The translations under genes were made by a program, and so were the position numbers. A stretch of 19,475 nucleotides of DNA from a virus (lineage: Duplodnaviria > Heunggongvirae > Uroviricota > Caudoviricetes), in IMG/VR virus record IMGVR_UViG_2778261380_000011, positions 1 to 19,475 of that record; one strand, given 5' to 3'. Below are positions 1 through 19,475 of the stretch, one piece after another. The notes beneath the pieces are model-generated. The model saw only the letters and a list, made by a program, of their open reading frames with translations, was not told where the DNA came from and searched no databases. Numbering within the stretch: the first letter of the stretch is position 1; the number at the start of each line of letters is the position of its first letter.

Positions 1-249
1 TCAAACATCGTTAAACTGACTTACGGATATGTCTTCTTTGAGCAGCTTTTCCAGAAATGCGTTTGGAATGAACGTATATCCCTCCTCTTTTGGTAGAGAC
101 GGGAGCAACGCCCTCGCCTCAGCCTTCAGAAGCTCAGTTCTGGCAACTTTCACAAAAGAGATTTGAGTTCTTTCATCAATGGAACGAAGGAAGCGCAAAC
201 GCTTAGCTTCTTTGTGTGTATCAGGTGGATTAAAGCCTTTGTTTCGCAT
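1..249 (-). CDS. hypothetical small protein (82 aa) immediately downstream of cII
   Basis: ATG at 249-247 with GAGGT Shine-Dalgarno (rc of 256-260); stop codon is rc of window positions 1-3; the longer 185-aa version in the ORF track overlaps cII and is rejected. Confidence 0.5.
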   Translation of the reverse strand: MRNKGFNPPDTHKEAKRLRFLRSIDERTQISFVKVARTELLKAEARALLPSLPKEEGYTFIPNAFLEKLLKEDISVSQFNDV

Positions 250-326
250 ATAATTACCTCGTTGGATGTTATTAAAATTCCATTTGTATTTGTTCAGAAC
301 GCTCGGTTGCCGCCGGGCGTTTTTTA
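250..326 (+). ncRNA. oop-like antisense RNA overlapping 3' end of cII (5' boundary approximate)
   Basis: Intrinsic terminator on + strand (stem 300-306 / 313-319, loop ttgccg, T-run 320-326) antisense to cII; 3' portion resembles lambda oop RNA as I remember it. Confidence 0.4.
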
Positions 327-565
327 TTGGTGAGAATCGAAGCAACTTGTCGTGCCAATCGGGCCATATCGTCGTCAACGACGCCCCATTCAAGAACAGC
401 AAGCAGCATTGAGAACTTTGGAATCCAGTCCCTCTTCCACCTGCTGATCTGCGACTTATCAACTCCCACAGCTTCCGCTGTCTTCTCAGTTCCAAGCATT
501 GCGATTTTGTTAAGCAACGCACTCTCGATTCGTAGAGCCTCGTTGCGTTTGTTTGCACGAACCAT
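272..565 (-). CDS. cII: transcriptional activator CII (lambda-type)
   Basis: Translation from MVRANKRNEALRIESALLNKIAMLGTEKTAEAVGVDKSQISRWKRDWIPKFSMLLAVLEW... matches lambda CII from memory; ATG at 565-563 preceded by AAGGAA; ORF-track 117-aa version is an upstream extension. Confidence 0.92.
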   Translation of the reverse strand: MVRANKRNEALRIESALLNKIAMLGTEKTAEAVGVDKSQISRWKRDWIPKFSMLLAVLEWGVVDDDMARLARQVASILTNKKRPAATERSEQIQMEF

Positions 566-575
566 ATGTAAGTAT
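543..575 (+). promoter_or_regulatory. pRE-like CII-dependent promoter (TTGC-N6-TTGC at 543-556, -10 AAGTAT at 570-575)
   Basis: Exact TTGCgtttgtTTGC CII-binding repeat inside the cII 5' coding region, directed toward cI, as in lambda pRE. Confidence 0.6.
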
Positions 576-644
576 TTCCTTAGATAACAATTGATTGAAT
601 GTATGCAAATAAATGCATACACCATAGGTGTGGTTTAATTTGAT

Positions 645-675
645 GCCCTTTTTCAGGGCTGGGATGTGTAAGAGC
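645..675 (-). promoter_or_regulatory. nutR N-utilisation site (boxB 645-659, boxA 668-675) between cro and cII
   Basis: Minus-strand reading agctcttacacatcccagccctgaaaaagggc closely matches lambda nutR boxA/boxB; palindromic hairpin 601-620 (gtatgca-aataaa-tgcatac) lies at the tR1 position. Confidence 0.7.
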
Positions 676-684
676 TGGAATGTC

Positions 685-900
685 TTAAGCGGCTTTGTGT
701 TCCGGCGGGAACACGTCATCAAGACTGACTTTTGCGCCTAACTTGTTTAGGCACTCAACAAGAGCACGGCATGTTTTAAGGTCTGGGAAGCGACGACCAG
801 ATTCCCAATGTCCGATAGCTCCCTGTGTGCATCCAACTGCCTTAGCAAGTGTTGTTTGAGAGATATTCAGTGACTCTCGATATTTTCGTAGGTTGCTCAT
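685..900 (-). CDS. cro: Cro-like HTH repressor (non-lambda specificity)
   Basis: 71-aa product MSNLRKYRESLNISQTTLAKAVGCTQGAIGHWESGRRFPD... with helix-turn-helix similar to the CI N-terminus; ATG at 900-898 preceded by GGAGG; divergent from cI. Confidence 0.8.
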   Translation of the reverse strand: MSNLRKYRESLNISQTTLAKAVGCTQGAIGHWESGRRFPDLKTCRALVECLNKLGAKVSLDDVFPPEHKAA

Positions 901-926
901 ATGCCCTCCATAGTAACCATGAAACA

Positions 927-955
927 ATAATACGATATGTACTTTTAGAATGCAA
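927..955 (-). promoter_or_regulatory. pR-like promoter (-35 TTGCAT rc of 950-955, 17-nt spacer, -10 TATTAT rc of 927-932) overlapping operator site
   Basis: Near-consensus sigma70 hexamers read on minus strand 25-50 nt upstream of cro ATG; spacer contains operator-like AGTACATATCGTATT. Confidence 0.65.
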
Positions 956-1002
956 ACAAAAAATACATCTTGTGCATGGATGGTTTTAGTACAGAGCGTA
1001 AT
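929..1002. promoter_or_regulatory. oR operator region with at least two 15-bp sites (929-943 and 988-1002), consensus AGTACA-N3-CGTA-YT
   Basis: Same 15-bp pattern recurs at oL (1809-1823); sites overlap pR and the region just upstream of the cI start. Confidence 0.55.
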
Positions 1003-1011
1003 AATAAGGGT

Positions 1012-1671
1012 ATGAAAATGAAATGGTATGAACTGGCTAGATCCAGAATGAAAGAGCTCGGCATAACTCAAGAGAAGTTAGCTGAAGAGCTTGGTATGAC
1101 GCAGGGTGGAATTGGTCACTGGTTGCGCGGATCTCGTCATCCATCTCTTGACGAGATTGGTGTGGTGTTTAAATACCTTGGTATTGATAACGTCTCATTC
1201 AACCACGACGGTACATTTTCACCTGTTGGCGAATACTCATCTGCCCCCGTTAAAAAACAATATGAGTACCCTGTTTTTTCTCATGTTCAGGCCGGGATGT
1301 TCTCGCCTGAGCTTAGAACCTTTACCAAAGGTGATGCGGAGAGATGGGTCAGCACAACCAAAAAAGCCAGTGATTGTGCGTTTTGGCTTGAAGTTGAAGG
1401 TAATTCCATGACCGCGCCAACAGGATCCAAGCCAAGCTTTCCTGACGGGATGTTAATTCTCGTTGACCCTGAGCAGGCTGTTGAGCCAGGTGATTTCTGC
1501 ATAGCCAGACTTGGTGGTGACGAGTTTACCTTCAAGAAACTGATCAGGGATAGCGGTCAGGTGTTCCTACAGCCACTAAACCCGCAATATCCAATGATTC
1601 CATGCAATGATAGCTGTTCCGTAGTAGGGAAAGTTATCGCCAGCCAGTGGCCTGAAGAGACATTTAGTTAA
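1012..1671 (+). CDS. cI: CI-type repressor: heterologous N-terminal HTH domain fused to lambda-like LexA/S24 autocleavage C-terminal domain
   Basis: C-terminal two-thirds ([19 protein letters not shown]...[53 protein letters not shown]...) matches lambda CI from memory incl. Ser (GNSM) and Lys (FKKL); N-terminus [37 protein letters not shown] is not lambda; ATG at 1012 (ORF track starts upstream at TTG 970). Confidence 0.9.
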
Positions 1672-1703
1672 CAGCCTCACCACTCTAAAACACACAACAA
1701 TAA

Positions 1704-1733
1704 CCCGACCTTAGCGTCGGGTTTTCTTTTTCC
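1704..1733 (+). terminator. intrinsic terminator after cI
   Basis: Stem cccgac (1704-1709) / gtcggg (1716-1721) followed by ttttcttttt. Confidence 0.7.
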
Positions 1734-1796
1734 AAAATATAAACCCATTAAATACAAAGCGTTATAAAAAACTAATTATATTTAGAACATTTTGTA

Positions 1797-1825
1797 TTGA
1801 CTTGATAAAGTACAAATCGTACTAT
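1797..1825 (+). promoter_or_regulatory. pL-like promoter (-35 TTGACT 1797-1802, 17-nt spacer, -10 TACTAT 1820-1825) with oL operator 1809-1823
   Basis: Near-consensus hexamers; downstream leader catcagcaggacgcact... matches lambda pL transcript start region from memory; operator AGTACAAATCGTACT in spacer. Confidence 0.65.
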
Positions 1826-1865
1826 TTAGCCATCAGCAGGACGCACTAACCACCATGAAGGTGGG

Positions 1866-1895
1866 GCTCTTAAAAATTAAGCCCTGAAGAAGGGC
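1866..1895 (+). promoter_or_regulatory. nutL (boxA gctctta 1866-1872, boxB gccctgaagaagggc 1881-1895)
   Basis: boxB hairpin sequence identical to lambda nutL boxB as remembered; located in N leader. Confidence 0.75.
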
Positions 1896-2052
1896 AGCAT
1901 TCAAAGCAGAAGGCTTTGGTGTGTGTGATACGAAACGAAGCATTGGCCGGAAGTGCGAATCCGGATTAGCTGCCAATGTGCCATTGCGAGGTGTTTTCGT
2001 TCAGGACTACGACTCCCACACACAACCAAAGCTAACTGACAGGAGAATCCAG

Positions 2053-2379
2053 ATGGATGCACAAACACGCCGCCGCGAACGTCGCGCAGAGAAACAGGCT
2101 CAATGGAAAGCAGCAAATCCCCTGTTGGTTGGGGTAAGCGCAAAACCAGTTAACCGCCCTATTCTCTCGCTGAATCGCAAACCGAAATCACGAGTAGAAA
2201 GCGCACTGAATCCGATAGACCTTACGGTGCTGGCTGAATACCACGAACAGATTGAAAGCAACCTGCAGCGTATTGAGCGCAAGAATCAGCGCACATGGTA
2301 CAGCAAGCCACGCAGTGAAATGGGTGTGACTTGTGTTGGTCGCCAGAAAATGAAATTAGGCAGCAAACCACTTATTTGA
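2053..2379 (+). CDS. N: antitermination protein N (lambda-type)
   Basis: MDAQTRRRERRAEKQAQWKAANPLLVGVSAKPVNRPILSLNRKPKSRVESALNPIDLTVLAEY... matches lambda N (arginine-rich motif) from memory; AGGAG at 2041-2045; ORF-track start 1921 is an upstream extension. Confidence 0.92.
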   Translation: MDAQTRRRERRAEKQAQWKAANPLLVGVSAKPVNRPILSLNRKPKSRVESALNPIDLTVLAEYHEQIESNLQRIERKNQRTWYSKPRSEMGVTCVGRQKMKLGSKPLI

Positions 2380-2387
2380 GGTGAGAT

Positions 2388-2711
2388 ATGGAAGCATTAG
2401 TAGTAGAGCGAAGCGAGGATGGCTACTGGACGCACCCAGAATACGCCAACCTGTTTGGGGATAGAGAGGTAATTTCAGCTGATGAGTTCAGATCTTTCTG
2501 CAAGCAGCATGGCATTGAATCATCAATTGTTGAAATGGAAAACGACAACAATCAAACGGTAATTGACGCGTATTTTGAAGATGGGAATCAAAACATCAGT
2601 GGATGGGAGCCAAGCATGCCAGATGGAGAAGGATGGTTTGTCGGTTCGATTCACGATACAGAAGACGGTCCGATCTGCGTTTGGTTCAGGAATGTAGATA
2701 AGGCCGAATAG
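2388..2711 (+). CDS. hypothetical acidic protein (107 aa) in the ral/sieB position
   Basis: ORF with GAGGTG SD upstream of ATG 2388; no family recognised. Confidence 0.65.
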   Translation: MEALVVERSEDGYWTHPEYANLFGDREVISADEFRSFCKQHGIESSIVEMENDNNQTVIDAYFEDGNQNISGWEPSMPDGEGWFVGSIHDTEDGPICVWFRNVDKAE

Positions 2712-2727
2712 TCGGCCTTTATTTTTG
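2701..2727 (+). terminator. intrinsic terminator (stop codon inside loop)
   Basis: aggccga (2701-2707) / tcggcct (2712-2718) stem followed by ttatttttgg. Confidence 0.6.
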
Positions 2728-2748
2728 GCATAAACAACAGAGGCTAAC

Positions 2749-3045
2749 ATGGAATTTAAAGGTACTGAAGGTAAGTGGGAAATAATGATGGATGGCGATG
2801 AGATTAAAATCATCCAGGCAGACTCTCTTGAAAATGGCACAGGCTGGCGTTCGTATATTGCAATCTGTGAGGAAGTTCAATGCATTGAAGATGCCAATCT
2901 AATAGTGGCTGCACCTGACCTTCTCGAAGCGCTTCAGTTATTACTTAAGCAAACCAAAAATAGAACAACGACAACATATCCAGAATGGTATGGAGCTGTT
3001 AATAAAGGTCTCGCAGCAATAAGAAAAGCTCTTGGGGATAAGTAA
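2749..3045 (+). CDS. hypothetical protein (98 aa)
   Basis: ORF with AGAGG SD; no family recognised. Confidence 0.65.
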   Translation: MEFKGTEGKWEIMMDGDEIKIIQADSLENGTGWRSYIAICEEVQCIEDANLIVAAPDLLEALQLLLKQTKNRTTTTYPEWYGAVNKGLAAIRKALGDK

Positions 3046-3233
3046 TGAAAGTAAAAATAACCGCTTCTAATACCAGTTTTGTTAGTGTTGGTGATATTAC
3101 AGAAGTAATAACAAACCATGATGGAACACAAGTTATGTGGTCTGATTTTTGTAAAAGATATGAGCGAGTCACTTGGTGTAAACTCGTATGGGGCGTCGAA
3201 TACGAAGAATTACCTGAAATGCATGACGAATAA
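3045..3233 (+). CDS. hypothetical protein (62 aa), start overlaps preceding stop (TAATG)
   Basis: Translational coupling geometry; no family recognised. Confidence 0.55.
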   Translation: MKVKITASNTSFVSVGDITEVITNHDGTQVMWSDFCKRYERVTWCKLVWGVEYEELPEMHDE

Positions 3234-3328
3234 GCACTGTGTATTCATTCCAACGAGTGAATACACGGAGCAATGTCGCTCGTAACTAAACAGGAGCCGA
3301 CTTGTTCTGATTATTGGAAATCTTCTTT

Positions 3329-3353
3329 GCCCTCCAGTGTGAGGGCCTTTTTA
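3329..3353 (+). terminator. intrinsic terminator upstream of cIII (read through under N antitermination)
   Basis: gccctc (3329-3334) / gagggc (3341-3346) stem followed by cttttta; a second hairpin at about 3240-3267. Confidence 0.6.
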
Positions 3354-3418
3354 TATGCATACCAATAACGCTTCACTTGAGGCGTTTTCGTTATGCAATC
3401 AAACAGAAGGAGCATCCT

Positions 3419-3589
3419 ATGCAACAGTTCGCTATTGCAGGGGCGGCATCGGTTCGCCCTTTCAACCCGATTTTATCGGTACAGCATTCACGAAAAAATA
3501 TTTTAACCGGAGCAGACTTTAAACAACCAAGAATGAAAAGCTTGCTCGAAAAGCTTTGGGATATTTTGAAACAACAAGGCCGTCCATGA
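3419..3589 (+). CDS. cIII: CIII-like protein (56 aa)
   Basis: MQQFAIAG...LLEKLWDILKQQGRP resembles lambda CIII (MQYAIAG...LIDILNQPG) from memory; AGGAG 8 nt upstream of ATG 3419; ORF-track start 3314 is an extension. Confidence 0.7.
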   Translation: MQQFAIAGAASVRPFNPILSVQHSRKNILTGADFKQPRMKSLLEKLWDILKQQGRP

Positions 3590-3693
3590 GTTTTACAGAT
3601 AACTGGTCAGACGAAGAATTCATTCGTCTGATGAACAAAATGCTCAATCAGCACAAAGAACAGGAGAAAGATGATGATTCTGACTCTGAATGA
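3586..3693 (+). CDS. possible small acidic protein (35 aa) in the kil position
   Basis: ATG overlaps cIII stop (ATGA at 3586-3589); not in ORF track (short); overlaps start of next gene in another frame. Confidence 0.3.
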   Translation: MSFTDNWSDEEFIRLMNKMLNQHKEQEKDDDSDSE

Positions 3694-3982
3694 TAAGCGT
3701 GAAATATCGCAAATAATCGCAAGTTTTACTGATGAAGATTACGAACGAATCAACAGTGAAGTTAATCGCCTCTGCAAACGTTGCGACCCAATAAGCGAAA
3801 TGCTTCGCTCATATAAACCAGATGAACACACTAAGGACGCTATCGACTGGCTGGAAGATTATGACTGTAACTATCAGGAAAAAGCCGCTGAATGGTTCTG
3901 GGATGCAATAACCGAAAGAGTTAAGGCTGAATATGCCTTCGCAATATTCAAACGCAGACATATTTATGGAGAAGCTGCATGA
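3671..3982 (+). CDS. hypothetical protein (103 aa)
   Basis: ORF with GGAG upstream; stop overlaps recT start (ATGA). Confidence 0.65.
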   Translation: MMILTLNDKREISQIIASFTDEDYERINSEVNRLCKRCDPISEMLRSYKPDEHTKDAIDWLEDYDCNYQEKAAEWFWDAITERVKAEYAFAIFKRRHIYGEAA

Positions 3983-4881
3983 GCAATATCGTTGAATTCG
4001 TTAAACAGCAAGAGCAGTTATTCTGCGGAGCATTGACTGAACAGACGGTGACATGGGCTAAGGAAAGCCAGTTTGCAATTCAGTATTTCCAGAAAAATGA
4101 TTACCTGGCTAAAACGGCACTGGCAAATCCAACCAGCGCACAGAACGCCATCATCAATGTTGCGGCGATCGGCATCACCTTAAACCCGGCCAGCAAACTT
4201 GCTTATCTAGTTCCGCGCGACGGCATGGTTTGCCTTGATATCAGCTATATGGGATTACTTCACCTTGCACAGTCGACAGGATCAATTAAGTGGGGGCAAT
4301 GCAAACTGGTGTACTCAAACGACACCTATGAATCAAACGGCCTTGATTCAGCACCAACCCACAAATACAACGCATTTGGTGAGCGAGGCTCTATTGTTGG
4401 TGGTTATTGTACGGTTAAAACAGCAGATGGTGACTACCTCACTGAAGAAATGAGTCTGGCAGAAATTAAAGCAGTGGAAGCAACGAGCAAGGCAAAGAAT
4501 GGACCGTGGAAAACATTCTGGGAAGAGATGGCACGTAAAACAATAGTTAAACGCGCCAGCAAATACTGGCCTAAAGCCCAGCGACTGGATAATGCCATTC
4601 ACCTGCTTAACGAAGATGAAGGTATGCATCAGGAACCAGTTATGCCGCACAAATCAGAGGAAGATATCCGCGAAGATGAACGGAAACGCCAGCAGGAAAT
4701 AATGGAAAAAGCACAACTTCTTTGTGATGAAATGGCTCAGGCAGAAAACATGGATGATTTGAAGCGATATTTTGCAGAAGCATATCGCCTGACATCTGGA
4801 ATGAAATTGCAGCAGAACGTACAAGCCATTTACATAGAATGCAAAGCGAAACTGGAGGTTGCCAGTGAGCAAACTATATGA
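3979..4881 (+). CDS. recT: RecT-family single-strand annealing recombinase
   Basis: Motif NGPWKTFWEEMARKTIVKRASKYWP resembles RecT NGPWVTHWEEMAKKTAIRRLFKYLP (from memory); 300 aa; coupled to flanking genes. Confidence 0.88.
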   Translation: MSNIVEFVKQQEQLFCGALTEQTVTWAKESQFAIQYFQKNDYLAKTALANPTSAQNAIINVAAIGITLNPASKLAYLVPRDGMVCLDISYMGLLHLAQSTGSIKWGQCKLVYSNDTYESNGLDSAPTHKYNAFGERGSIVGGYCTVKTADGDYLTEEMSLAEIKAVEATSKAKNGPWKTFWEEMARKTIVKRASKYWPKAQRLDNAIHLLNEDEGMHQEPVMPHKSEEDIREDERKRQQEIMEKAQLLCDEMAQAENMDDLKRYFAEAYRLTSGMKLQQNVQAIYIECKAKLEVASEQTI

Positions 4882-5347
4882 AATAGCCAATGAATACGCA
4901 AAATTGATGGATTCAGATTTAGAGCCAGAGATGATTGCTGACACAATAGAAGGCATGGAAGGAGAATTTACCGATAAAATAGAGCAACTTCTTGCCATTA
5001 TTAAAAATGAATCTGGTTATGCTGAACGCCTCAAGGACGAGGCAAAATCACTGAATGAACGAGCCGCAGTAATTCAAAATAAGATTGACAGCATTATGGC
5101 GTATATAGCGTCATCGCTTGAAATGGTTGGCAAGAAAAAGATTCGAGCGGGTATTCACCAGGTAACAATCCGCAAACCGTCAGAAACTGTAGAAATCATC
5201 GACTCAAGCGCCCTTCCTCCTGAATACGTTGAGTTTGAAACGACAATTAAAGCCGACAAACTGGCAATCAAACACCAACTAAAAGCAGGAATAAATATCC
5301 CCGGCGCTCAACTCAAAGTTGGGAAACCTTCACTTCTTATCAAATAA
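4865..5347 (+). CDS. hypothetical coiled-coil protein (about 160 aa) in RecT-partner position, possibly Siphovirus Gp157-like
   Basis: GTG 4865 preceded by GGAGG (4854-4858), overlaps recT stop; family assignment is tentative. Confidence 0.55.
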   Translation: MSKLYEIANEYAKLMDSDLEPEMIADTIEGMEGEFTDKIEQLLAIIKNESGYAERLKDEAKSLNERAAVIQNKIDSIMAYIASSLEMVGKKKIRAGIHQVTIRKPSETVEIIDSSALPPEYVEFETTIKADKLAIKHQLKAGINIPGAQLKVGKPSLLIK

Positions 5348-5358
5348 CGGTATCGCCT

Positions 5359-5673
5359 ATGAAAAAGACTCCATGGGAGAAATGGGAAGTCGATTTCTTA
5401 CGCGAAGTAGCGGCGACAATGCCAGTTGAAGTTATCGCAGAAAAACTGGAAAGGACTGAAAAAGCAGTAATGGCGAAAGCAACAAGGATTGGCGCTGACA
5501 TTGTTAGCCGACTTCGTGGAAGACGCTGGACAAGAGCCGAAGTATCACTTTTCGGTAAGTTCTCCGCAGAAGAAATAGCAATTGCAACCTGCCGCTCAAT
5601 TTATTCAGTAAGAGCTATGCGATACAAGCTAAAAAAACTCGATGAAGAAAGAGCAGGCATACGAATAAATTAA
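5359..5673 (+). CDS. hypothetical protein (104 aa)
   Basis: ORF in operon context; weak SD. Confidence 0.55.
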
Positions 5674-5689
5674 CAAAGAGGAATTTACC

Positions 5690-5854
5690 ATGAGAGGACT
5701 TGCATACAATCCCGGCATTCTTCCGGCAGAAATGATTATTCGCCAACGCGTAAAGCCAATGCCATCGAGAGAGGAATTGCTTAAGAGAAATTCTTTTCCA
5801 TCAGTGAATCAAAACAAATATCTGAATGCGATGTGGAGGAGTGGGAAGAAATGA
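5690..5854 (+). CDS. hypothetical small protein (54 aa)
   Basis: ATG 5690 preceded by AAGAGGA; stop overlaps next start (ATGA at 5851-5854); not in ORF track. Confidence 0.45.
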
Positions 5855-6360
5855 AACAAATGTCACTAATTGAGATGGATGGATTTCTGAAAGGTAAATG
5901 CATCCCACGAGATTTAAAGGTTAACGAAACAAACGCTGAATATCTTGTCCGTAAGTTCGGTGAACTTGAATCAAAACTGGAAACGGCGTTGCGGGAGTGT
6001 CGTTCTGCTGGAATCACGATTGATAACCTTGAGGCCAAGTGCGCGGCGCTGGCAGCGGAGAGTGTGGGGATGAAGAAGTTCTGCAAAGACGCTGCATTCG
6101 ATGCCGATTACGAAGCAGAGCTAGGTATGGAGCGTGGTGGATTCAGTGATGCGCTTAACGAAATCAAAACCCCAGCCACCGATGCTTTCCTGTCTGAAGT
6201 GCGGGCGCAGGGCGTGGAGATGCTGGCAAAAAATCATCAGAGTATCGTCAATGCACTTAAGGGAGATTCTTTATTTTCTGATGGTGAATACCTGCATGCA
6301 GCTATTGTTTCCGCAGCTGTATATTTCGCTGCAGAGCTTCGCAAAGGAGGCAACCAGTGA
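5851..6360 (+). CDS. hypothetical protein (169 aa)
   Basis: ATG 5851 with GGAGG upstream; ORF-track start 5833 is a GTG extension. Confidence 0.65.
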
Positions 6361-6611
6361 GTAATTCAGCACGACTACAGCTTGGTTTTTCACCGCTATC
6401 AAAAACTATCATGCTGGCAAAAATGCGCTATGTTGAAGGTGGACGTATGCGCGTTGGCAATGATCCAGGTCGTGATGTTACCAATGAGGCTGCTCAATTG
6501 GTGTGGCGACTGGTCATGGCTGAAGGTGGTGAGATCGCGTGGGAGCTGGATGATGGTTCTCGCATGGTGTTGAAGGCAGAAAAGCAGGAGGCAACCAGTG
6601 AGCAAGATTGA
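6357..6611 (+). CDS. hypothetical protein (84 aa) bounded by identical 17-mers
   Basis: GTG 6357 overlapping preceding stop, preceded by AGGAGG; ends within second copy of aggaggcaaccagtgag. Confidence 0.45.
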   Translation: MSNSARLQLGFSPLSKTIMLAKMRYVEGGRMRVGNDPGRDVTNEAAQLVWRLVMAEGGEIAWELDDGSRMVLKAEKQEATSEQD

Positions 6612-7584
6612 TTATCAGGCACTGCGTGCTAAGGCAGAAAAAGCAACGTGTGGCGAGTGGTCGCTCGAATATGGAGAGAGCCGATTTGATGGTGATGATG
6701 CGCTAATTCATCGTGAAGTTGCTGGATATATTCCCATTTGCAGAATTGAAGGAGCGCATCCAGAAAGCGGTTTCGATGAAGATTTCCAAATGGAACAGCA
6801 GGCCAATGCTGAATTCATCGCCGCAGCCAATCCGGCTACCGTACTGGCGCTGCTGGATGAACGGGAAAGAAACCAGCAATACATCAAACGCCGTGACCAG
6901 GAGAACGAGGAAATTGCGCTTACGGTAGGGAAGCTGCTAATCGAAAACGGCCGGCTTGTTGCCGATACGCTACGCCACTTAGCTGATAACGAAATCGACT
7001 CTGATTATTTTGCTATCACCTCAACTAATGAGAACGGTACTGAAATTGATCATGAGATGTCTATTACCGATTACGCACTGCAAGCTGCCGGAACTGTAGA
7101 CGAATTGGTTGCGGCGCTGGAAGCCGCAAAATCAAAACTCAACGAGCAGCGTGAATATTACGAGGGAGTAATCGCGGATGGGAGTAAGCGTATTGCTGAA
7201 CTGGAGAAAAGCGAAGAGCAACTCATCAATGAGCGTGACCATGCTGAGTCTGCTTTAGCTGATATGTACTTTGCAGCAACCGGTAACAGGCCGGAGTGGA
7301 GCAACTGGTTCGGCTTTTCAGATGCTGTCGATGCCGTGGTTGACAGAATAGCTGATTTAGAAGCCAAACAGCCATCGCCGGTAGTGCCGGATAATGCATC
7401 AGAGTCGCTTGCTTATGCTTACAAAGAGCTTACGCCTGAGATTATGCGCGGTCATATCGCTGTATTCGAGCGATATGGAATAGCCCCAAACGATAGCATT
7501 ACCACAATTCAGGCACTGCGAATCGCGCTGGATGGTATAGAGCGGAGCGACGCCATGCTTCAGGGAGGTAATAATGACCAATAA
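6598..7584 (+). CDS. Ead/Ea22-like family protein
   Basis: GTG 6598 after AGGAGG; N-terminus MSKIDYQALRAKAEKATCGEW resembles Ea22-like prophage proteins (from memory). Confidence 0.7.
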   Translation: MSKIDYQALRAKAEKATCGEWSLEYGESRFDGDDALIHREVAGYIPICRIEGAHPESGFDEDFQMEQQANAEFIAAANPATVLALLDERERNQQYIKRRDQENEEIALTVGKLLIENGRLVADTLRHLADNEIDSDYFAITSTNENGTEIDHEMSITDYALQAAGTVDELVAALEAAKSKLNEQREYYEGVIADGSKRIAELEKSEEQLINERDHAESALADMYFAATGNRPEWSNWFGFSDAVDAVVDRIADLEAKQPSPVVPDNASESLAYAYKELTPEIMRGHIAVFERYGIAPNDSITTIQALRIALDGIERSDAMLQGGNNDQ

Positions 7585-8188: not shown

Positions 8189-8302
8189 TAGTGAACTATT
8201 ATATCTATTTGTATTAAAAGAGTTTTTATAAAATAAATCTTCCAAAGCATGTAAAAACACTGTTAATCTTAACGTGTGTGAAACGTGAAGAGAGGTGTTG
8301 AA

Positions 8303-11452: not shown

Positions 11453-11473
11453 AACTTACAACTCCTGAGGATA

Positions 11474-12355
11474 TCAACAAATTTTAATTTTTACATCCAT
11501 CAAATTCATGATGAATTCTTTTTGCTTTCTTGATAATGGTGTTGCATAACCTAAAACACGTAAACATGCTGGAAGAGAATAAATATAATCCAAAAAAACT
11601 TTATCGTTACATCTTTTTTTCATAGCAGAGATAAAGTATTTATTTGCTATGTTTAATGGCATCTGCATGAATATCTCTTTACAATATTCATAAACCAATC
11701 CGTTAGGCATATTTATTTTAGTTGAAGTGTAATCTTCTATTATAGCTAAGAACTCTTCCTTTCTAAGAACTGAAAACAAGCTGTCACTTTTAATATAATC
11801 AATATTTGAATCTGCCTCCTTAATGACACTCAATTGATCTTTTTTATTCAAAACCATAACTCCCACTCTGGGGAGATTTAAAGCACAATATTTACTTGCA
11901 TACTCTGGATGTGTAACTATATACACTTTATCAAAAACATCCAAATAATCAGGGGCTTGAGTAATCAACCTTTTTGGTGAATCATACTCTGTCTTAATCT
12001 CGTAAGCTGTAGACGTACCATTAAACACCGCAACATCCACTATAGAGTTTTTAATTGGTAACTCTATGGACGACGAACTTGTTTTTGGGCTGTGCTTACC
12101 GAATATTATTTTATTGACAAGTGCTGTCTTATAAACATATTCATTTCTATAATTCAGACGCAAAAAATCATATAATGATGTAAATAAATCCCTTAGTGAA
12201 ATCTCATGTTCATTATTATCATTGTTTGAAAACAGTGTTTCATAGCAGTAAGAATCAAAACTCCCAAATAAATCCGAAATATCCTTACCTTTTGCTAAGG
12301 ATGAAAAAATGGGGCGACGGAAAAATTTAGCATATTCCTTTTTATTATGACTCAT
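11474..12355 (-). CDS. hypothetical protein (293 aa) with PD-(D/E)xK nuclease-like motif, first gene of AT-rich cargo operon
   Basis: Motif SIVD(107)VAVF-x9-YE(119)IK(121) (nt 11993-12037); strongly AT-rich coding sequence. Confidence 0.8.
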   Translation of the reverse strand: MSHNKKEYAKFFRRPIFSSLAKGKDISDLFGSFDSYCYETLFSNNDNNEHEISLRDLFTSLYDFLRLNYRNEYVYKTALVNKIIFGKHSPKTSSSSIELPIKNSIVDVAVFNGTSTAYEIKTEYDSPKRLITQAPDYLDVFDKVYIVTHPEYASKYCALNLPRVGVMVLNKKDQLSVIKEADSNIDYIKSDSLFSVLRKEEFLAIIEDYTSTKINMPNGLVYEYCKEIFMQMPLNIANKYFISAMKKRCNDKVFLDYIYSLPACLRVLGYATPLSRKQKEFIMNLMDVKIKIC

Positions 12356-13034
12356 TACTCATACTCTATAAACATCATGCAATTTGATAAGTTATGACGA
12401 ATTCTCACCATCCAGTTACTACCTGTACATACTAATCAAAAAAAACGAGTACGCAAGATACGAAAGTACTTTTCTTGTTCACCAGTTAGCTTACCTTGAT
12501 CCTCACCAGCGACTGGAAGATAGGTAGCAGTATATGTGGAAACCTTCCCCTAGCTAGGTCTACAAACGTAGTTTGGGCATTTAGGCTCCACGATTCACGG
12601 TTTGACACGGCCTGATATCTGCACATTCGTTTTGATATGCAGCAATCGTGAAAAAGGAAAATATACGCTCGACAGACCAAAACGGCACTACACCGCACCC
12701 GCCTGCGGTTTTCATATCACTAAAAATTTTCAGCCTGGATTTTTTACAAACGATACCGCCAGTCCGTGCCAGTCCTCGAGATGTACTGCGATACAGGAAC
12801 TGAAAAGAATGAAAAGAAATTCATTTTTTTTCAGTTTTACTGTCCGTCGAATCTATGGCCTGAATACGCAACTCTATGATATTAAATGGATAATTAATTT
12901 TAGGTGTGTGATTTTATGAAGGTTTGTGAAACATGAAGAAGATAACCAGTTGAAAAATAATAATTTTATGACCGTATAAACTGAAATCCTGTGTTCAGGT
13001 TCCGGGAACAGATCGGCCATTCCCGACGCATACT

Positions 13035-13307
13035 TTACCCATTCTTTTGCGCAGCCAGCAGCAACTTTAAAGCCTTTTCCCGTTCCTCGGGTGGAATTGC
13101 ATCAATCAGCTCTTTAACCCTTCCCTGCCCGTTCAGCGCGCTTGGACTAACGGAATGGGAGAAAGCAACATTCATCACAAACGAGTGACCGCACTCCACA
13201 TTAGAGCAATAGCAGTACACATCGTACAGTTGTGGGTGTTTCCTGTTTGTTTTACCTATCCGTGCTACTGCCTGACATGTGGGGCAGTACATTCTCATCA
13301 TCTTCAT
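13035..13307 (-). CDS. Ogr/Delta-family zinc-finger transcriptional activator
   Basis: MYCPTCQ...YCYCSNVECGH Cys4 pattern as in P2 Ogr / P4 Delta; exact start among several N-terminal Met codons uncertain. Confidence 0.75.
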   Translation of the reverse strand: MKMMRMYCPTCQAVARIGKTNRKHPQLYDVYCYCSNVECGHSFVMNVAFSHSVSPSALNGQGRVKELIDAIPPEEREKALKLLLAAQKNG

Positions 13308-13373
13308 CGTTCTGTGCCCTATACTGTTGCCCGCCAGAAGAAGGGATTTGGATCCCTACCTCTTGTTCTGAAC

Positions 13374-13563
13374 GTGTAACACTGGTAACACGTGTAACGC
13401 TATTGATTTAAAAGGATTTAATCTGTTACCAGTTAGCAAAATCAAGAGGTAACGCGTGGTAACACACCATTTTTTGTTACCTCTGTTACCAGTCAGTATT
13501 TTTGACTGGTAACACTGAAGAACCGCATCAGTAACGGGTGTTACCTCTGTTACCAGTGTTACC
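13374..13563. repeat. iteron array: about 13 copies of TGTTACC / GGTAACA heptamer in both orientations, mostly phased at 9 bp; putative replication origin
   Basis: Copies at 13374-13399 (three tandem 9-mers), 13424-13430, 13448-13464, 13475-13490, 13508-13514, 13531-13563; located immediately downstream of primase gene. Confidence 0.75.
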
Positions 13564-13589
13564 TCATAAAAATAAGACTCACGCGATAA

Positions 13590-16277
13590 TCACTCAGGTT
13601 CAGCGCTTCCCAGTACCTGTGTATTGAACTGGTACACACGTTTAAGCCCTATTTCTGGCAGGCGAATGCTGTTTTGCGTCCGGCCATCTTCACCGGGTTT
13701 CAGCCAGCCCGCGTCCACACACAACCTGGCCACCTTACGCGAGTCAAATCCCTTACAGATCTCCTTCCAGCCTGACGGGAGAACGTAGAACGTCACAACC
13801 GGCTCTGTCACGTTGTCTCCTTTATCGACTTTTCTGAATCCCATCATTGAAACAGGCCGGTTCCTGTCGTCATTCCAGTCAGCAAACCGACTGAACTGAT
13901 TACGCGTCATGAAGTCCCGAACCTGTTCAAGTGCCGCTTTATCTTCCTGATTAGCTGTATGGCCCCGGTCAGCCATCCATGCAGCCAGACAGCTTTGAGC
14001 GGCACGAAAGGCCTCTCCCTCCGGCCATCCTGTGATGCCCGCTTTTGTGGCCAGCTCCCCGGCCATCGCAACCAGAGCAAAACGGGTAACAGCCCGGCCA
14101 ACCTGATTCCCGGCATTTTCCGGCGTCAGCCTTCGGGTATACTCTTTCAATAAGGCTTTCGCCTGACTGGTCAGTTCCGGCAGATCAGCGGTCAGGCAAT
14201 ACAGCCAGTCGCGGAATGGTGCACCATGATAATGCGCTACGTGCTGCTCAAGATGCTCAGCCAGGGTTTTCCCGCTACTGAAGCCATGAAGTTCTTCAAA
14301 CACGCCATACTTGCCCGAATCGCTTGGGATCTGGATCATTCTGACCTCAACCCCGGCATACGTACGTTCCCCGGCGCTTGCCGCATGCTCTACCAGTGAC
14401 AGTTCCCCGGTAGACAGAAACAACAGATTCCAGCGGTTGGTTTCCCTTACCGAACCATCTGTTCTGGCTCTGGCTTTGCCCTGCCCGTTAGCCAGCATAT
14501 AAGCGATATTTCCCGCCTCCCTGCCGTCAACCTCCCGGATTTCATCCAGCATCAGCGTGGCATCATTGCGGCGGCTCGCCGTTCCTTCTAAGGCATTCCC
14601 CGTCGCCCGCCACGTATGCCAGAAATCTGTTCCACCACATACTGATGCAGCCACTTTCATCGTCGTGGTTTTACCGTCTGTGGATTCCCCTTTGAGGTGA
14701 TAACCTCCACCGCCGATACCAACCAGTTTCAGAAGGGGGGCAGCAAATGCCAGACTCACCGCAAAGGCAAGACGGGCATTCTTTATGCAATAACGGCCTA
14801 TATTTTCACGCCAGCCCTCTGATGTGCCGCTGACACGAAAATCACGCCCCTGCACACTCGATGTTTGTAAGATGACTGACTGGGCTTCGCGCCCTATCAC
14901 TTCATCCTGGAGAACGTAAACCCCGCCGTGCCAGCCAGTTTTATTCACACAGGTTACTTTTCTGTCCGGTTTACACAGCGAGATATATTCCATCAGGAAT
15001 GCTCTGGCCATGCCGTTAATGTTGATGTAAGAAAGCCCGTTAACCAGCAGAACGCGGCGCAGTTCTTCCCCGCTACCGCCCAGCATCTCCATCGGCATTG
15101 CCCATTTACGGCTGTTTCCGTTGGTATCTTCCCATTCCAGCAAACGCCCGTAATTACTTCCATCAGCATCACTGGTGATTGCCGTCACCCGCAACGGACT
15201 GCAAATTTTGATATTACGTATCTCTGTATCACCATCAGACTTATTAACCAGCTTGTCGTACCACAAATATTCTTTTGTCAGCCGGAACCCTTCTGGTAAA
15301 CGGGTCTGCCCTTTGCCATGCAGCGTCATTTCTTCACGAAAGGCATCTCTCGCCCGTTCTTTCCCCACTTCCTGCCGATAATCATCCCAGTCAGCCTTAT
15401 GGCGTACCGGAGGGAGCGTTACCCAGCCATCCACCGCTTTGGCGGCTTTCTCTGCCTGAATACGCCCGGTGTTTTCTTTGCCGTCAGCCAGATCATTATC
15501 TCCGGCCAGAATGATCCGGGTTTCCGGCCAGCGTTTTCGGATCTGCTCCGTCACCTTCAGTAAATTGGTGGCAGCGACAGCCGCCACGATCCATCCTTCA
15601 GTCAGCAGACTGACGGTAAGCGCCGTGGCAAAACCCTCAGTGATAATCACCTGTTCAGGTGTTTCAGCGGGTATATCGGTCAGGGCAATGAATGCGCCAG
15701 ACAGCTGGCTACCGGGCAGCAGACTTTTATCCCCGTCAGGATTGATAAGCTGGCCACCAGTAATATTCCCGGAAATATCCGTCAAAGGCAGCAGTAATGA
15801 ACCGGTGGAAAATGTTATTCCGGCCAGATTCAAAGGCTGTGACAGCAAGGGAAGTGAATACCCGTGTAAGCTCTTATTTGTCAGATAGACCGGCTCACCA
15901 TTGCAGGACTGCTGTCTGAGTCTGGTATATCGCTCCGCGCCCGCTTCTTTTCCTGCGGCCTTTTTCCTGGCTGGCAATGCGGGCTTCTCCTGTATTTCTG
16001 GTAATGCAAGCGCCTCAGATACCATCCCGGCGACTTCTTTTATCTTTCTTCCTGTCACCAGACGAACCAGATCAAGACCATCGCCATGACCGCACTGATT
16101 ACAAAACCACGTCCCTCGCCCCGCTTTATCGTCCAGTCGAAAACGATCTTTTCCACCACAGGCAGGGCAAGCCCCATGATGTCCTGCGGACGGTACTTTA
16201 ATACCTAATGCTGACAGGATATAAGGCCAGCGCCCAATTGCAGCTCCGGAAATCGTGGATACAGACGGTGTTTTCAC
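13590..16277 (-). CDS. P4 alpha-type primase-helicase (895 aa)
   Basis: N-terminal zinc-binding primase motif CPACGG...WFCNQCGHGDG; Walker A GESTDGKTT; GTG start 16277 preceded by AGGAGG and overlapping upstream stop (GTGA). Confidence 0.9.
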   Translation of the reverse strand: MKTPSVSTISGAAIGRWPYILSALGIKVPSAGHHGACPACGGKDRFRLDDKAGRGTWFCNQCGHGDGLDLVRLVTGRKIKEVAGMVSEALALPEIQEKPALPARKKAAGKEAGAERYTRLRQQSCNGEPVYLTNKSLHGYSLPLLSQPLNLAGITFSTGSLLLPLTDISGNITGGQLINPDGDKSLLPGSQLSGAFIALTDIPAETPEQVIITEGFATALTVSLLTEGWIVAAVAATNLLKVTEQIRKRWPETRIILAGDNDLADGKENTGRIQAEKAAKAVDGWVTLPPVRHKADWDDYRQEVGKERARDAFREEMTLHGKGQTRLPEGFRLTKEYLWYDKLVNKSDGDTEIRNIKICSPLRVTAITSDADGSNYGRLLEWEDTNGNSRKWAMPMEMLGGSGEELRRVLLVNGLSYININGMARAFLMEYISLCKPDRKVTCVNKTGWHGGVYVLQDEVIGREAQSVILQTSSVQGRDFRVSGTSEGWRENIGRYCIKNARLAFAVSLAFAAPLLKLVGIGGGGYHLKGESTDGKTTTMKVAASVCGGTDFWHTWRATGNALEGTASRRNDATLMLDEIREVDGREAGNIAYMLANGQGKARARTDGSVRETNRWNLLFLSTGELSLVEHAASAGERTYAGVEVRMIQIPSDSGKYGVFEELHGFSSGKTLAEHLEQHVAHYHGAPFRDWLYCLTADLPELTSQAKALLKEYTRRLTPENAGNQVGRAVTRFALVAMAGELATKAGITGWPEGEAFRAAQSCLAAWMADRGHTANQEDKAALEQVRDFMTRNQFSRFADWNDDRNRPVSMMGFRKVDKGDNVTEPVVTFYVLPSGWKEICKGFDSRKVARLCVDAGWLKPGEDGRTQNSIRLPEIGLKRVYQFNTQVLGSAEPE

Positions 16278-16684
16278 AGCAGCACCTCCTGACCTTCCGG
16301 CTTCACAAATTCAAAACCTTCGGGTAGTTCGCCATCAGGTGCTCCGAAAATAATATCCCGGTAAACCTCACGCATCTCTGTGACACCAAAAACTGACAGG
16401 CGAATATTTTCTGACATAAAGCCTGGTTTAAGCATTTTTTCCAGTTTCTCTGCGGCCAGTATGCAACCAGCATCAGCCCCAAACTCATTCACCCACGGCA
16501 TTTCAATATGGTAAATAATATTACTCACCACTTTTTCGTGGGAGAGTTCTATTCGTTCGCCATCTTCAATATAAACAGGTTCATTATGAACACGCACCAT
16601 TAAGGAAATGAATGCATCAGCAATGTAGTAGCGTAAGACTGCTGTTCGTAAAGCATGCGCCTTTAAATTTTGATTATTATTCAT
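16274..16684 (-). CDS. hypothetical protein (136 aa), coupled upstream of primase
   Basis: ATG 16684 preceded by AGGGAG; stop overlaps primase start. Confidence 0.7.
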   Translation of the reverse strand: MNNNQNLKAHALRTAVLRYYIADAFISLMVRVHNEPVYIEDGERIELSHEKVVSNIIYHIEMPWVNEFGADAGCILAAEKLEKMLKPGFMSENIRLSVFGVTEMREVYRDIIFGAPDGELPEGFEFVKPEGQEVLL

Positions 16685-16913
16685 CGCGCATCACTCCCTT
16701 AATTGTGCTGGTTTCCTTAACAACGCCATCCAGTTGTTCGGCAATACAGGCCACTAAAGCCGCAGCGCCTTCCGCTGAAACAGTTCTCGCTCCATTCACT
16801 GTGGGCACGGACAAGACCTCTGCAAGAAACTCACTGGCCAGTGCCGCCCGTAACAGACGACTCTCCCCCTGTTCACTCAATATGCAGCCTTGCTTAAAAT
16901 TCATGGATTTCAT
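16677..16913 (-). CDS. hypothetical protein (78 aa)
   Basis: ATG 16913 preceded by GGAGGTG; overlaps neighbours at both ends. Confidence 0.6.
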   Translation of the reverse strand: MKSMNFKQGCILSEQGESRLLRAALASEFLAEVLSVPTVNGARTVSAEGAAALVACIAEQLDGVVKETSTIKGVMRDE

Positions 16914-17113
16914 GCAACCACCTCCCCGGCTCTTTTCACAGGGATACGGGCAGCAAAGCTCAGGATAAATTCAGTGGCAAGTTTAAGGCGTGCAGCATGC
17001 TCGCATTCTGCGATTACACGCACAGGGCGTGGACGGGCATCACGGTCTGTACGGCGGACAGCCAGAAAGACAAAGGTAAATTCAGGGTGAGATAAAGCAG
17101 GGACTGTAGCCAT
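16910..17113 (-). CDS. hypothetical protein (67 aa), first gene of replication operon
   Basis: ATG 17113 preceded by AAGGAGG (rc of 17121-17127); ORF-track 196-aa version is an unsupported upstream extension across the leader. Confidence 0.6.
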   Translation of the reverse strand: MATVPALSHPEFTFVFLAVRRTDRDARPRPVRVIAECEHAARLKLATEFILSFAARIPVKRAGEVVA

Positions 17114-17123
17114 AATGGCAACC

Positions 17124-17390
17124 TCCTTCAGATAGCGGGTAACGCTACCACCGGAGTTCCTACGCTCATGGGTGGTAGCCCAGACGGGGGTAGGAATACC
17201 GGCTCTGAAGGATACCGGCCAGCCCGAAAGCTGCCCCGCCTGGACTACCATAATTCTGATGATGTGGCGTAAAAAATAAAAAAATACAATCAGCCACCAC
17301 ACCATAAATTTTAGGTGAGTCAAAGCTGCGACACAAAAAAACACGCCTAGCGCGTGTAGTATCGCCTTCAGATAACACGGGTTCCTACGC
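17124..17390 (-). promoter_or_regulatory. structured leader with duplicated element (gttcctacgc at 17156-17165 and 17381-17390, each after ccttcagata) and a complementary gtaggaa motif (17190-17196) between them; P4 CI-RNA-like immunity architecture
   Basis: Direct repeat plus internal complement; inverted repeat gctaccacc/ggtggtagc (17135-17179) encloses the downstream copy just before the RBS. Confidence 0.45.
17334..17357 (-). terminator. intrinsic terminator/attenuator within the leader
   Basis: On minus strand: stem acacgc/gcgtgt (17341-17357) followed by U7 (rc of 17334-17340). Confidence 0.6.
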
Positions 17391-17419
17391 CCGGCTGCCG
17401 ATTTTGCGGCAACCTTTAA

Positions 17420-17449
17420 ACTATATCCCGCGCATTCCTGGTGAGGCAA
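17420..17449 (-). promoter_or_regulatory. sigma70-like promoter for the leader/replication operon (-35 TTGCCT rc of 17444-17449, 18-nt spacer, -10 TATAGT rc of 17420-17425)
   Basis: Hexamers read on minus strand upstream of the repeated leader element. Confidence 0.5.
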
Positions 17450-17552
17450 GAAATTTATAACCGAAAACTGATCATTGCCTGGATTAATTAACGCTGGCAT
17501 GCTTAAGCCTCTGCTTAAAAATAGTTCTTCATTTTTCCTGATGCTGTAAACG

Positions 17553-17580
17553 AGACCCGCCTCTGAGCGGGTCTTTCTGT
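17553..17580. terminator. GC-rich hairpin immediately after capsid-like gene
   Basis: agacccgc (17553-17560) / gcgggtct (17567-17574); T-run weak on minus strand, so function as terminator is uncertain. Confidence 0.35.
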
Positions 17581-17587
17581 CGCTAAG

Positions 17588-18592
17588 TCAATCCGCAAAC
17601 GTCAGGGTGCACTCATCAACAGCCGCGTACAGTTCAGGTTCACCGAGTGCATAACCTTCATTGCGCAGGTAGGAATGCACGTATTCACTGCTTTCATCAT
17701 CAAACTCAGCACGAAACCAGCGTGTTATCGCCTGAGTGTAAATATGCAGATTATCCAGCGTCGTTACTGCCAGACGCTTACCCGGCATAAACGGGGGAAT
17801 AAACGCAAAGCGGCCAGCAACAGAACTTGTAGCCATCTGTGCCGCATTCACATCAGACGGGCGGTCTGCGGCATTAAATAACTTCAGGCGTTGATGTGCT
17901 GCCAGCTCTGCCCCAACCAGTACAACCAGACGAGGATCTTCACGAAACTGCTCAGCAATAAGCTCTGTAATCAGATGGTTGGCCAGAGCATCAATATTTT
18001 TCCAGGTGCCAGTCTCTCCCAGAGTGACAGGCTCAGAGATGATTTGCTTTCCGTTCCCGTAGGCTTTCGCCAGTGCATGCCAGCCAATATTGACATCCTC
18101 GCCTTTTTTATTGATTTCCGGGTTTGTAGTATTTGCAATCGACACACCGTTGAAACCGACCCGCAGCATGTCCAGCGCATATGCCTGGGCAAAAAAGCTC
18201 TCAACCGTTTTCTCAAACTCATCCGGCACGCCGGTATGGTAAATATGAGACATATCGGAATAGCTGATCCGGGCGCAGGTATCCGTCTCTGTCAGAAAGA
18301 ACTCCGTACCATTGATTGCCATTTTTTTGTGGAAACGGCCACCATCCACACGTCCGGTATACAGTTCACTGGCACCAATATTGACGGCATTACCTGACAC
18401 GGCGTTAACATCACGTAGGGTAATATTTTTAATAAGCCACCCGGATTCCAGAATTGAGGTACGCAGTATATTTTCAGTAGGTTCGCTTAATGCAAAGCGT
18501 CTGTTTGATTCTTCCTGATAGTTAGTGCCAGTGACGAATTTATTATGATAACGACGTGCTGCGTCCGGCCTTTCAGTTTTGAAGGCATACAT
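17588..18592 (-). CDS. P2-family major capsid protein (gpN-like) homolog
   Basis: Segments LDMLRVGFNGVS, DALANHLITELIAEQFREDPRLVVLVGAELAA and C-terminal half align with P2 gpN as I remember it; ATG 18592 with AAGGTG SD. Confidence 0.7.
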   Translation of the reverse strand: MYAFKTERPDAARRYHNKFVTGTNYQEESNRRFALSEPTENILRTSILESGWLIKNITLRDVNAVSGNAVNIGASELYTGRVDGGRFHKKMAINGTEFFLTETDTCARISYSDMSHIYHTGVPDEFEKTVESFFAQAYALDMLRVGFNGVSIANTTNPEINKKGEDVNIGWHALAKAYGNGKQIISEPVTLGETGTWKNIDALANHLITELIAEQFREDPRLVVLVGAELAAHQRLKLFNAADRPSDVNAAQMATSSVAGRFAFIPPFMPGKRLAVTTLDNLHIYTQAITRWFRAEFDDESSEYVHSYLRNEGYALGEPELYAAVDECTLTFAD

Positions 18593-18614
18593 AGTTTTTC
18601 ACCTTTTTAAGTAT

Positions 18615-19475
18615 TTAAGAAAAGATTTTATTTTTGTACTCAGTAACCAGATTGTATTTCATTACATGCTCAACATAATCCCGGTCACTTACGACTGAAC
18701 GTAATACATAATTATCTGCTCGATAGTACTCCCTGTAAGCCATAGCTCTTGCCATTCCACCGTTATTTAATACATAACGATCAGTTGGAACGCTACAACG
18801 ACTAATAATTTCACTCACGGAATCAGATAAAGACTTGAGTGCATCAGTAATAAATTTAATATCACGGACAACGTCACTGTCATTAAATACAGAAATAAAA
18901 TCAGCAGGGATCTGGCCGGATTGAGGAAATATATTCAGTAAACGCTTATCGATTCCCTTCCCAATGTAGTTTCCTTCATCGGCCAGTACTCCCGGCAAAA
19001 GCTTGATCGTGCTCAATCGACTATGTTGTTCATTCAACCGGGAAACAGCCAGATGGTAATACCGTTCAGCATCCGCTCGTTCAGCATGCCCCATTTTATT
19101 CGTTTTGGCTTCAGCAATGCTACTGACGCCGTTTTTTGAGAATGTGCTTTTCCATGCAACTTCCGCATTTGTCACTTCACGCTGCCGGAAAGATAACTCT
19201 TCCTCTTCCTGACGACACAACTGGGCATAACGGCTCAGGAGCAGGTTGATCTCATTCGCCACAGTTTCCGTATCAGGTACTGTTAACCCCGTAAGTGAAT
19301 ACAGCTTTTCACCTTTAGCTCGCAGCTTATTCAGTGAATATATTTCAATAATACGCACAATACAGGCCGTGTCGCTATGAGTCTCTTTAAATGATCTTAC
19401 TTTGTAACTATCTAACACCGACACATGTTCGTTCTTAATTGATGCCAATTTCTTCTTAAAAACATTGTCAACCAT
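18615..19475 (-). CDS. hypothetical protein (286 aa), AT-rich
   Basis: ORF begins with ATG exactly at window end (rc of 19473-19475) and ends 22 nt before capsid gene; no family recognised. Confidence 0.65.
   Translation of the reverse strand: MVDNVFKKKLASIKNEHVSVLDSYKVRSFKETHSDTACIVRIIEIYSLNKLRAKGEKLYSLTGLTVPDTETVANEINLLLSRYAQLCRQEEEELSFRQREVTNAEVAWKSTFSKNGVSSIAEAKTNKMGHAERADAERYYHLAVSRLNEQHSRLSTIKLLPGVLADEGNYIGKGIDKRLLNIFPQSGQIPADFISVFNDSDVVRDIKFITDALKSLSDSVSEIISRCSVPTDRYVLNNGGMARAMAYREYYRADNYVLRSVVSDRDYVEHVMKYNLVTEYKNKIFS

Follow-up and report, generated by a model that had tools for sequence, protein, structure and literature searches.

A lambdoid prophage and a P4-related satellite that very probably lie head to tail at argW, with a 16-bp att core as their boundary

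The DNA analysed here is a 19,475-nt stretch of a tailed-phage record (Caudoviricetes; IMG/VR record IMGVR_UViG_2778261380_000011), referred to below as the window, in which a lambdoid early region on the left adjoins a P4-like module on the right. An earlier note, made from the letters alone, had left two alternatives standing, namely two elements integrated in tandem or a single hybrid element. We conclude that the window very probably joins two independent elements, a lambdoid prophage and a P4-related satellite, that would be integrated head to tail at argW, the gene for tRNA-Arg (CCU); we put the probability of this reading at about 0.93, and of the two alternatives it is the tandem that we retain and the hybrid that we abandon. 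Tandem, or polylysogenic, integration at one tRNA att site is a general and long-known part of textbook biology, and the composite architecture is an ordinary, well-understood instance of it, a tandem occupancy of argW with a clear 16-bp boundary.

Given that the best genomic matches of the window lie in an argW-dsdC neighbourhood, we searched the window for the 3' end of argW. The corresponding 15-mer, CTGCAGGGGACACCA, occurs once, at 9172-9186 on the plus strand (0.04 occurrences expected by chance), and together with the T that follows it forms CTGCAGGGGACACCAT (9172-9187, plus strand), a sequence reported as the duplicated 16-nt core of KplE1, a prophage at argW (PMC2951348). The core sits between a small gene and the integrase gene, in a gene layout that the earlier note had described correctly while stating, wrongly, that no boundary was visible in it. 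The further statement that there is no att repeat holds inside the window, where a direct-repeat search found no att-like pair, but not outside it. Only one core copy is seen here because the other two lie beyond the ends; in the closest genome one copy is that at argW, ~40 kb away on the left, and the other follows ~690 bp after the right window end. ARAGORN finds no tRNA in the window, in agreement with the note, the argW remnant being too short to be called.

We compared the flanks of every core copy in the related loci, taking 70 bp on each side. To the left of the window core lies the TorI-side att arm of the phage (9099-9171, plus strand). In HK633 virion DNA, which is our evidence for attP, the same arm and core are followed by the intS-side arm and intS, and a phage-only attR next to host DNA (L006) likewise has this arm on the left of its core. 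The phage record vB_EcoP-683R2 was considered as a source of attP and rejected, being a prophage excerpt with host csc genes that is usable only as a phage-only attR. To the right of the window core, the 70 bp do not differ from the DNA that comes after an intact argW at loci where the satellite stands alone (L003, L005); they belong to the int-side att arm of the satellite (9188-9346, plus strand), which is identical to the DNA after argW in satellite-only genomes. Given a phage arm on the left and a satellite arm on the right, 9172-9187 is a hybrid site, made of the attR half of the phage and the attL half of the satellite, and it marks the boundary between the two elements.

The small gene to the left of the core (8898-9098, plus strand, 66 codons) had been read as alpA and paired with the integrase gene. 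Its product shows no residue difference from TorI of HK633, nor from the TorI proteins of L001, L004, L006 and the KplE1-like remnant in L005, and it falls into the excisionase family phrog_66. TorI is the characterised recombination directionality factor, or excisionase, of the KplE1 module, in which intS is the first gene and torI the last (PMC3509656). Given this identity, the supposed alpA is the excisionase gene torI of the phage and not the alpA of the satellite, and the supposed alpA-int pair consists of one gene from each element. In the window, too, torI is the last gene of the prophage, ending 73 bp before the core.

Just upstream of torI there is a second piece of argW, a 16-nt fragment of the T arm (TTGCAGGTTCGATTCC, 8863-8878, plus strand) that is identical to argW and has a chance expectation of 0.01. 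HK633 virion DNA and all related loci have kept it in front of torI, and it belongs to the phage and is not a boundary. A 293-bp torI cassette is in this way enclosed by a split copy of the last ~31 bases of argW (8863-8878 plus 9172-9187), an arrangement which suggests that the excisionase gene may have been inserted into an older, longer attP homology.

With the argW module of KplE1 (CPS-53), HK620, Sf6 and Kapi1 the window has in common the 16-nt core, the TorI protein and the TorI-side arm, and in its relatives, as in that module, the opposite prophage end carries IntS, next to argW. It differs from the module in that the attR half is followed by the int-side arm of a second element rather than by the bacterial dsdC side, and in that IntS falls outside the window.

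The arrangements that occur in nature were counted with 175-bp junction-specific probes in 5426 complete E. coli genomes. The junction of argW with the int arm of the satellite is found in about 425 of them, that of the TorI arm with the satellite int arm, as in the window, in 13, and that of the satellite AlpA arm with the intS arm, which represents the reverse order, in 6. The satellite alone, in the order yfdC-argW-[int...alpA]-core-dsdC, is exemplified by AR_0081 (L003), whose copy is 100.000% identical to window positions 9172-19475 except for two IS1 insertions. The order of the window, yfdC-argW(core)-intS-[P22-like prophage]-torI-core-[int...alpA]-core-dsdC, is that of strain 4993 (L001, L002), which is of sequence type 131 (ST131), and of Ecol_276 (L010). 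Over the 10,304 bases of 9172-19475 the window is 100.000% identical to strain 4993 (L001), where both satellite core copies are perfect, and in the closest genomes the IntS gene of the phage adjoins argW, which is ~40 kb away to the left. The phages to the left of window-type junctions vary, being P22-like in some genomes and lambda-like in others, and there are also cases of the phage with no satellite.

The reverse order, argW-[satellite]-core-[intS...KplE1-like...torI]-dsdC, is that of strain D6 (L005). In the attR core of its KplE1-like remnant (L005 27455-27468) one G has been lost (CTGCAGGGACACCA), and this loss may lock the remnant in place.

In the closest relatives, then, att repeats delimit two elements with separate integrases, the very finding that the earlier note had named as one that would tell against its composite picture. 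Given that the satellite half is 100.000% identical in relatives, we assign the integrase gene int (9347-10522) and the sce7725/sce7726 cargo, the ownership of which had been left undecided, to the satellite, and torI to the phage. Element boundaries and gene ownership are thereby settled at a busy E. coli integration site, at which prophage and satellite callers tend to merge such neighbours or to mispair integrase and excisionase.

The arrangement would have arisen by integration of one element into a core copy regenerated by the other. With attP lying between torI and intS in phage DNA, the prophage would carry intS at its far left, by argW, and torI at its far right, and intS would thus come to lie beside argW and outside the window. 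Given that the identical satellite stands alone in many genomes, including those of ST131 strains such as JJ1886, whereas in strain 4993, also ST131, a phage lies between argW and the satellite, the phage most probably integrated second in the ST131 background, into the argW core regenerated by the satellite. Excision of each element would be expected to take place by recombination of the two core copies that bracket it, with the integrase and directionality factor that it encodes, and joint excision should be rare, since the arms of the outer pair of sites are mismatched.

Tandem P4-like elements have been noted before (PMC8628076). The present case resembles known tandem integration in having three direct core copies, separate arms for each element, and both orders in nature. 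It differs in that its partners have unrelated life styles, one being a lambdoid phage and the other a satellite with a presumed dependence on a P2-like helper, and in that their integrases are homologues, 45% identical, that recognise one core.

Several points weigh against the tandem reading as applied to this genome. Of the three core copies the window has just one, and we infer the left (argW-intS) and right (alpA-core-dsdC) ends of this genome from relatives, in which the satellite half is 100% identical and the phage half 98-99.7% identical to the window; that both elements would excise from this configuration is likewise something that we infer. A simple consensus scan predicted no sigma-70-like promoter between the core and int. 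In strain Bongo (L009, L004), moreover, the same torI-core-satellite junction is present, but the lambda-like prophage is without intS and its left end adjoins pao genes and an Avs2 gene, not argW. This layout points to a prophage-mediated rearrangement or to an assembly problem, and Bongo indicates that rearrangements occur at such junctions. With its left end not at argW, Bongo was rejected as a second full example of the tandem, and Ecol_276 was used instead.

A single hybrid, that is, a lambdoid phage that had acquired a P4-like module and moves with it as one unit, would have torI and int as its xis-int cassette, and it is true that the two genes are adjacent, co-oriented and 248 bp apart, mimicking a lambda-type xis-int pair, and that TorI and Int are of the families that such a pair would require. 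However, the att core lies between them, where phages have torI-core-intS instead, and in the relatives the far end of the phage has an IntS of its own. The satellite half is, furthermore, alone at argW in ~425 genomes and in the opposite order in 6, and the satellite is present in no phage record; the best such record covers 27% of the window, and among the 25 best there is no match beyond position 9200. We consider a hybrid extremely improbable. It is also very unlikely that the right-hand element is a decayed remnant, a dead island fixed beside the prophage with the core at 9172 as a scar. Many elements linked to argW are defective, KplE1 being one, the KplE1-like remnant of D6 has its 1-nt deletion in the attR core, and some satellite copies have received IS1 insertions; yet all satellite open reading frames (ORFs) in the window are intact, neither core copy is damaged in strain 4993, whose satellite half is 100% identical, and occurrence in both orders relative to prophages, together with swapped cargo, argues for recent mobility.

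The two elements might also be in tandem and functionally coupled, with N-antiterminated transcription from pL crossing torI and the core and entering the satellite int, with TorI acting on the hybrid site, or with both; as part of such coupling, SOS induction of a phage that is not the helper would alter the expression of the satellite integrase or the excision of the satellite. The plus strand carries the early-left operon as well as torI and the satellite int, and terminator-like hairpins are predicted only upstream of torI (at 8603, 8634 and 8830). With none predicted in 9098-9347, and with no promoter predicted before int, N-antiterminated transcription could enter int. IntS and the satellite Int are, in addition, homologous and share the core, and in KplE1 TorI and IntS bind the intS promoter region (PMC2951348). 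The basis of the proposal is, however, a consensus scan only. The int-side arm is that of the satellite, so that TorI sites are not expected in it; the 425 genomes that have the satellite without such an upstream context indicate that the context is not needed for maintenance; and Int in the absence of the satellite AlpA should not drive excision. We regard coupling as unlikely, and return to the reading of two independent elements for the description of each.

The left half of the window (1-9171) is the right-hand part of a lambdoid, P22-like prophage with a recombination module of the KplE1/HK620 type. Pfam matches bear out the lambdoid early region that the earlier note had recognised, from position 1 to ~8855, with a cI gene divergent from cro and cII and an N-led early-left operon that contains recombination genes; the left part consists of mosaic pieces that are 94-98% identical in DNA to P22-like and lambda-like coliphages. 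On the minus strand are cII (272-625; PF05269 Phage_CII, E=3e-48; coordinates of the ORF as listed, the true start probably being internal) and a cro-like helix-turn-helix regulator (685-1071; HTH_3, E=6e-12; again the ORF as listed, the annotated homologue being ~200 nt), whose homologue in L001 is annotated as a Cro/CI family regulator. The cI repressor gene, of the LexA/S24 type (970-1671; Peptidase_S24 and HTH_3), is on the plus strand, as is the gene for antiterminator N (1921-2379; PF11438 N36, E=2.5e-26), which opens the early-left (pL) operon. This operon runs rightwards to ~8850, and Pfam matches identify its accessory genes (3979-8188, all on the plus strand) as those for RecT (3979-4881), Gp157 (4859-5347), Ea22 (6598-7584) and a DUF551 protein (7574-8188). 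A terminator scan places its end at a terminator-like hairpin with a T run (8830-8855, the hairpin itself being 8830-8849; plus strand), ahead of the torI start at 8898, which agrees with the gap of about 45 bp given in the earlier note.

The satellite is ~11 kb long, extending from 9188 to the end of the window and ~700 bp beyond. Its integrase (9347-10522, plus strand, 391 aa) is a tyrosine integrase; it has Arm-DNA-bind_3, Phage_int_M and Phage_integrase domains, the same three-domain architecture as the phage IntS, to which it is 45% identical, and its gene stands directly beside argW in 425 genomes. Just before the int start there are two GTGTATAR motifs (9313-9320 on the plus strand and 9339-9346 on the minus strand). 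In the whole of the 49-kb L001 this motif has four copies, all within the two satellite arms, which makes them candidate arm-type sites of the satellite integrase.

The AlpA of the satellite lies just outside the window. In L001 the next gene past the window end, ~20 bp away, encodes a 75-aa AlpA-family protein (PF05930, E=5e-20) that is 27% identical to TorI and a candidate excision factor. It is the last gene before the right-hand core, which in the relatives sits in front of dsdC. Between alpA and that core are about ten repeats of the pentanucleotide GGGCT (L001 35455-35505, ~500 bp past the window end).

Between int and the Delta gene the satellite has a slot that holds, in the window, 1.85 kb of cargo (10502-12355) with a GC content of ~30-33% in the GC profile. 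It consists of an sce7725-family gene (10502-11452) and an sce7726-family gene (11474-12355), both on the minus strand and identified by the matches of the pair to NF033831/NF033832. PADLOC gave one weak candidate match, "cll", for sce7726, and none for sce7725. Given that an argW satellite of 94% identity from a soil isolate (NZ_LR778142.1) carries retron Ec48 in this slot, the slot behaves as a variable hotspot, and by the same analogy the sce7725/sce7726 pair is probably anti-phage. This parallels the defence hotspot next to int, between psu and int, of P4-like satellites (PMC9122126). The vehicle of the candidate defence cargo is accordingly the 11-kb satellite and not the prophage.

The genes after the cargo, for Delta, the primase-helicase, the Ash/Icd-like region, the capsid protein and a 286-codon ORF, are all on the minus strand. 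The earlier note had placed the start of the replication module 1.8 kb after int, but that figure is the length of the cargo, and the replication genes begin ~2.5-3 kb after int. An Ogr/Delta-type zinc-finger late-gene activator (13035-13307, minus strand; PF04606, E=5e-14) is followed by a cluster of direct and inverted repeats containing GTTACC (13370-13570), which lies in the gap that separates Delta from the primase-helicase gene, on the downstream (3') side of the latter. The cluster includes two exact copies of the 19-mer TGTTACCTCTGTTACCAGT, 64 bp apart, and is a candidate replication origin or set of iterons. The alpha-like primase-helicase (13590-16277, minus strand, 895 aa) has Zn_Ribbon_Prim, Toprim_3 and DUF927 domains. 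Over residues 1-317 it shares 38% identity with P4 alpha (E=1e-34), while its helicase part, of the DUF927 type, has no match to P4 alpha.

Two small minus-strand ORFs (16274-16913) come next, one of 136 aa that matches phrog_5991 (function unknown) and one of 78 aa without a match. Beyond them lies an Ash/Icd-like ORF (16910-17500, minus strand; PF10554 Phage_ASH, E=3e-32; NF033153), which is overlapped by two minus-strand RNAs, a C4 antisense RNA of the P1/P4 CI type (17168-17255; Rfam RF01695, 81 bits against a gathering score of 45) and isrK (17336-17413; Rfam RF01394, 69 bits). The C4 RNA lies in the leader of the replication operon, and the region 16910-17500 appears, from these matches, to encode an RNA immunity of the P4 type.

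The last two genes in the window set the satellite apart from P4. One encodes a full-length homologue of P2-family major capsid proteins (17588-18592, minus strand; PF05125, E=9.5e-67). This protein shares 48% identity with its counterpart in Quadragintavirus ev015 (Peduoviridae) and ~25% with the capsid proteins of P2-type phages, and its gene is within the satellite half of the window, which matches strain 4993 at 100% identity. Directly upstream of it is orf286 (18615-19475, minus strand), whose 286-aa product has 105 homologues in Enterobacteriaceae, all unnamed. Its AlphaFold2 model is all-helical (pLDDT 87), with no significant fold neighbour in the PDB (best E=0.1), and searches of Pfam, PHROGs, PADLOC and NCBIfam gave no family match. 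A comparison of orf286 with the gpO-like scaffold of the phage whose capsid protein comes closest showed no similarity.

Seven core components are used by SatelliteFinder to define P4-like satellites (PMC10085698). Of these the present satellite has Integrase, Delta, Alpha, Ash/epsilon and, counting the gene seen in L001, AlpA. It resembles P4 in its tRNA-targeting tyrosine integrase, in Delta, in the Ash/epsilon ORF, in the C4/CI-type RNA and, just past the window, in the AlpA-family regulator, as well as in the primase domain, in its size of ~11 kb and in the variable cargo slot by int. It differs in the DUF927-type helicase part, in its gene order, which is alpA-orf286-capsid-ash-alpha-delta-cargo-int, and in the two remaining components, Psu and Sid, which were not detected: no satellite ORF matches Psu in Pfam, PHROGs or NCBIfam, and for Sid there is no match either, the sole candidate being the helical orf286 product, which has no family or PDB fold match. 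In their place are the P2-family major capsid gene and orf286. The P2/P4 cos 19-mer had no match at <=3 mismatches.

The possession of a major capsid gene is a feature shared with the phage-inducible chromosomal islands that form capsids (cf-PICIs). The latter are detected by 11 core components, which include a head-tail adaptor, a connector and a large terminase (PMC10085698), whereas the sole structural protein recognised in the satellite is the P2-family capsid protein, and no further structural or packaging gene was matched in Pfam or PHROGs. Given that no other such gene is recognised, the satellite is, as judged from its gene content, not a cf-PICI.

The more interesting lead from this locus is a common satellite with a capsid gene and without detected Sid or Psu, the split argW copy around torI being another. 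The satellite is present in ~8% of complete E. coli genomes and has relatives across the Enterobacteriaceae. A search of the literature for this argW satellite, or for a capsid-encoding relative of P4, returned nothing specific, which is not proof of absence. It is tempting to propose, though we hold this only tentatively, that the satellite represents a separate, widespread branch in which the Sid/Psu system has been replaced by a diverged P2-family capsid protein and a 286-aa helical partner; such an element might build or co-assemble its own heads on a P2-like helper, and the shared argW core would allow it to be placed behind the N operon of a phage that is not its helper.

An exact 16-mer, GGCCAGCGCCCAATTG, is present in both the satellite int (9752-9767) and the primase-helicase gene (16225-16240), where, on a rough estimate, ~0.04 such pairs would be expected by chance.

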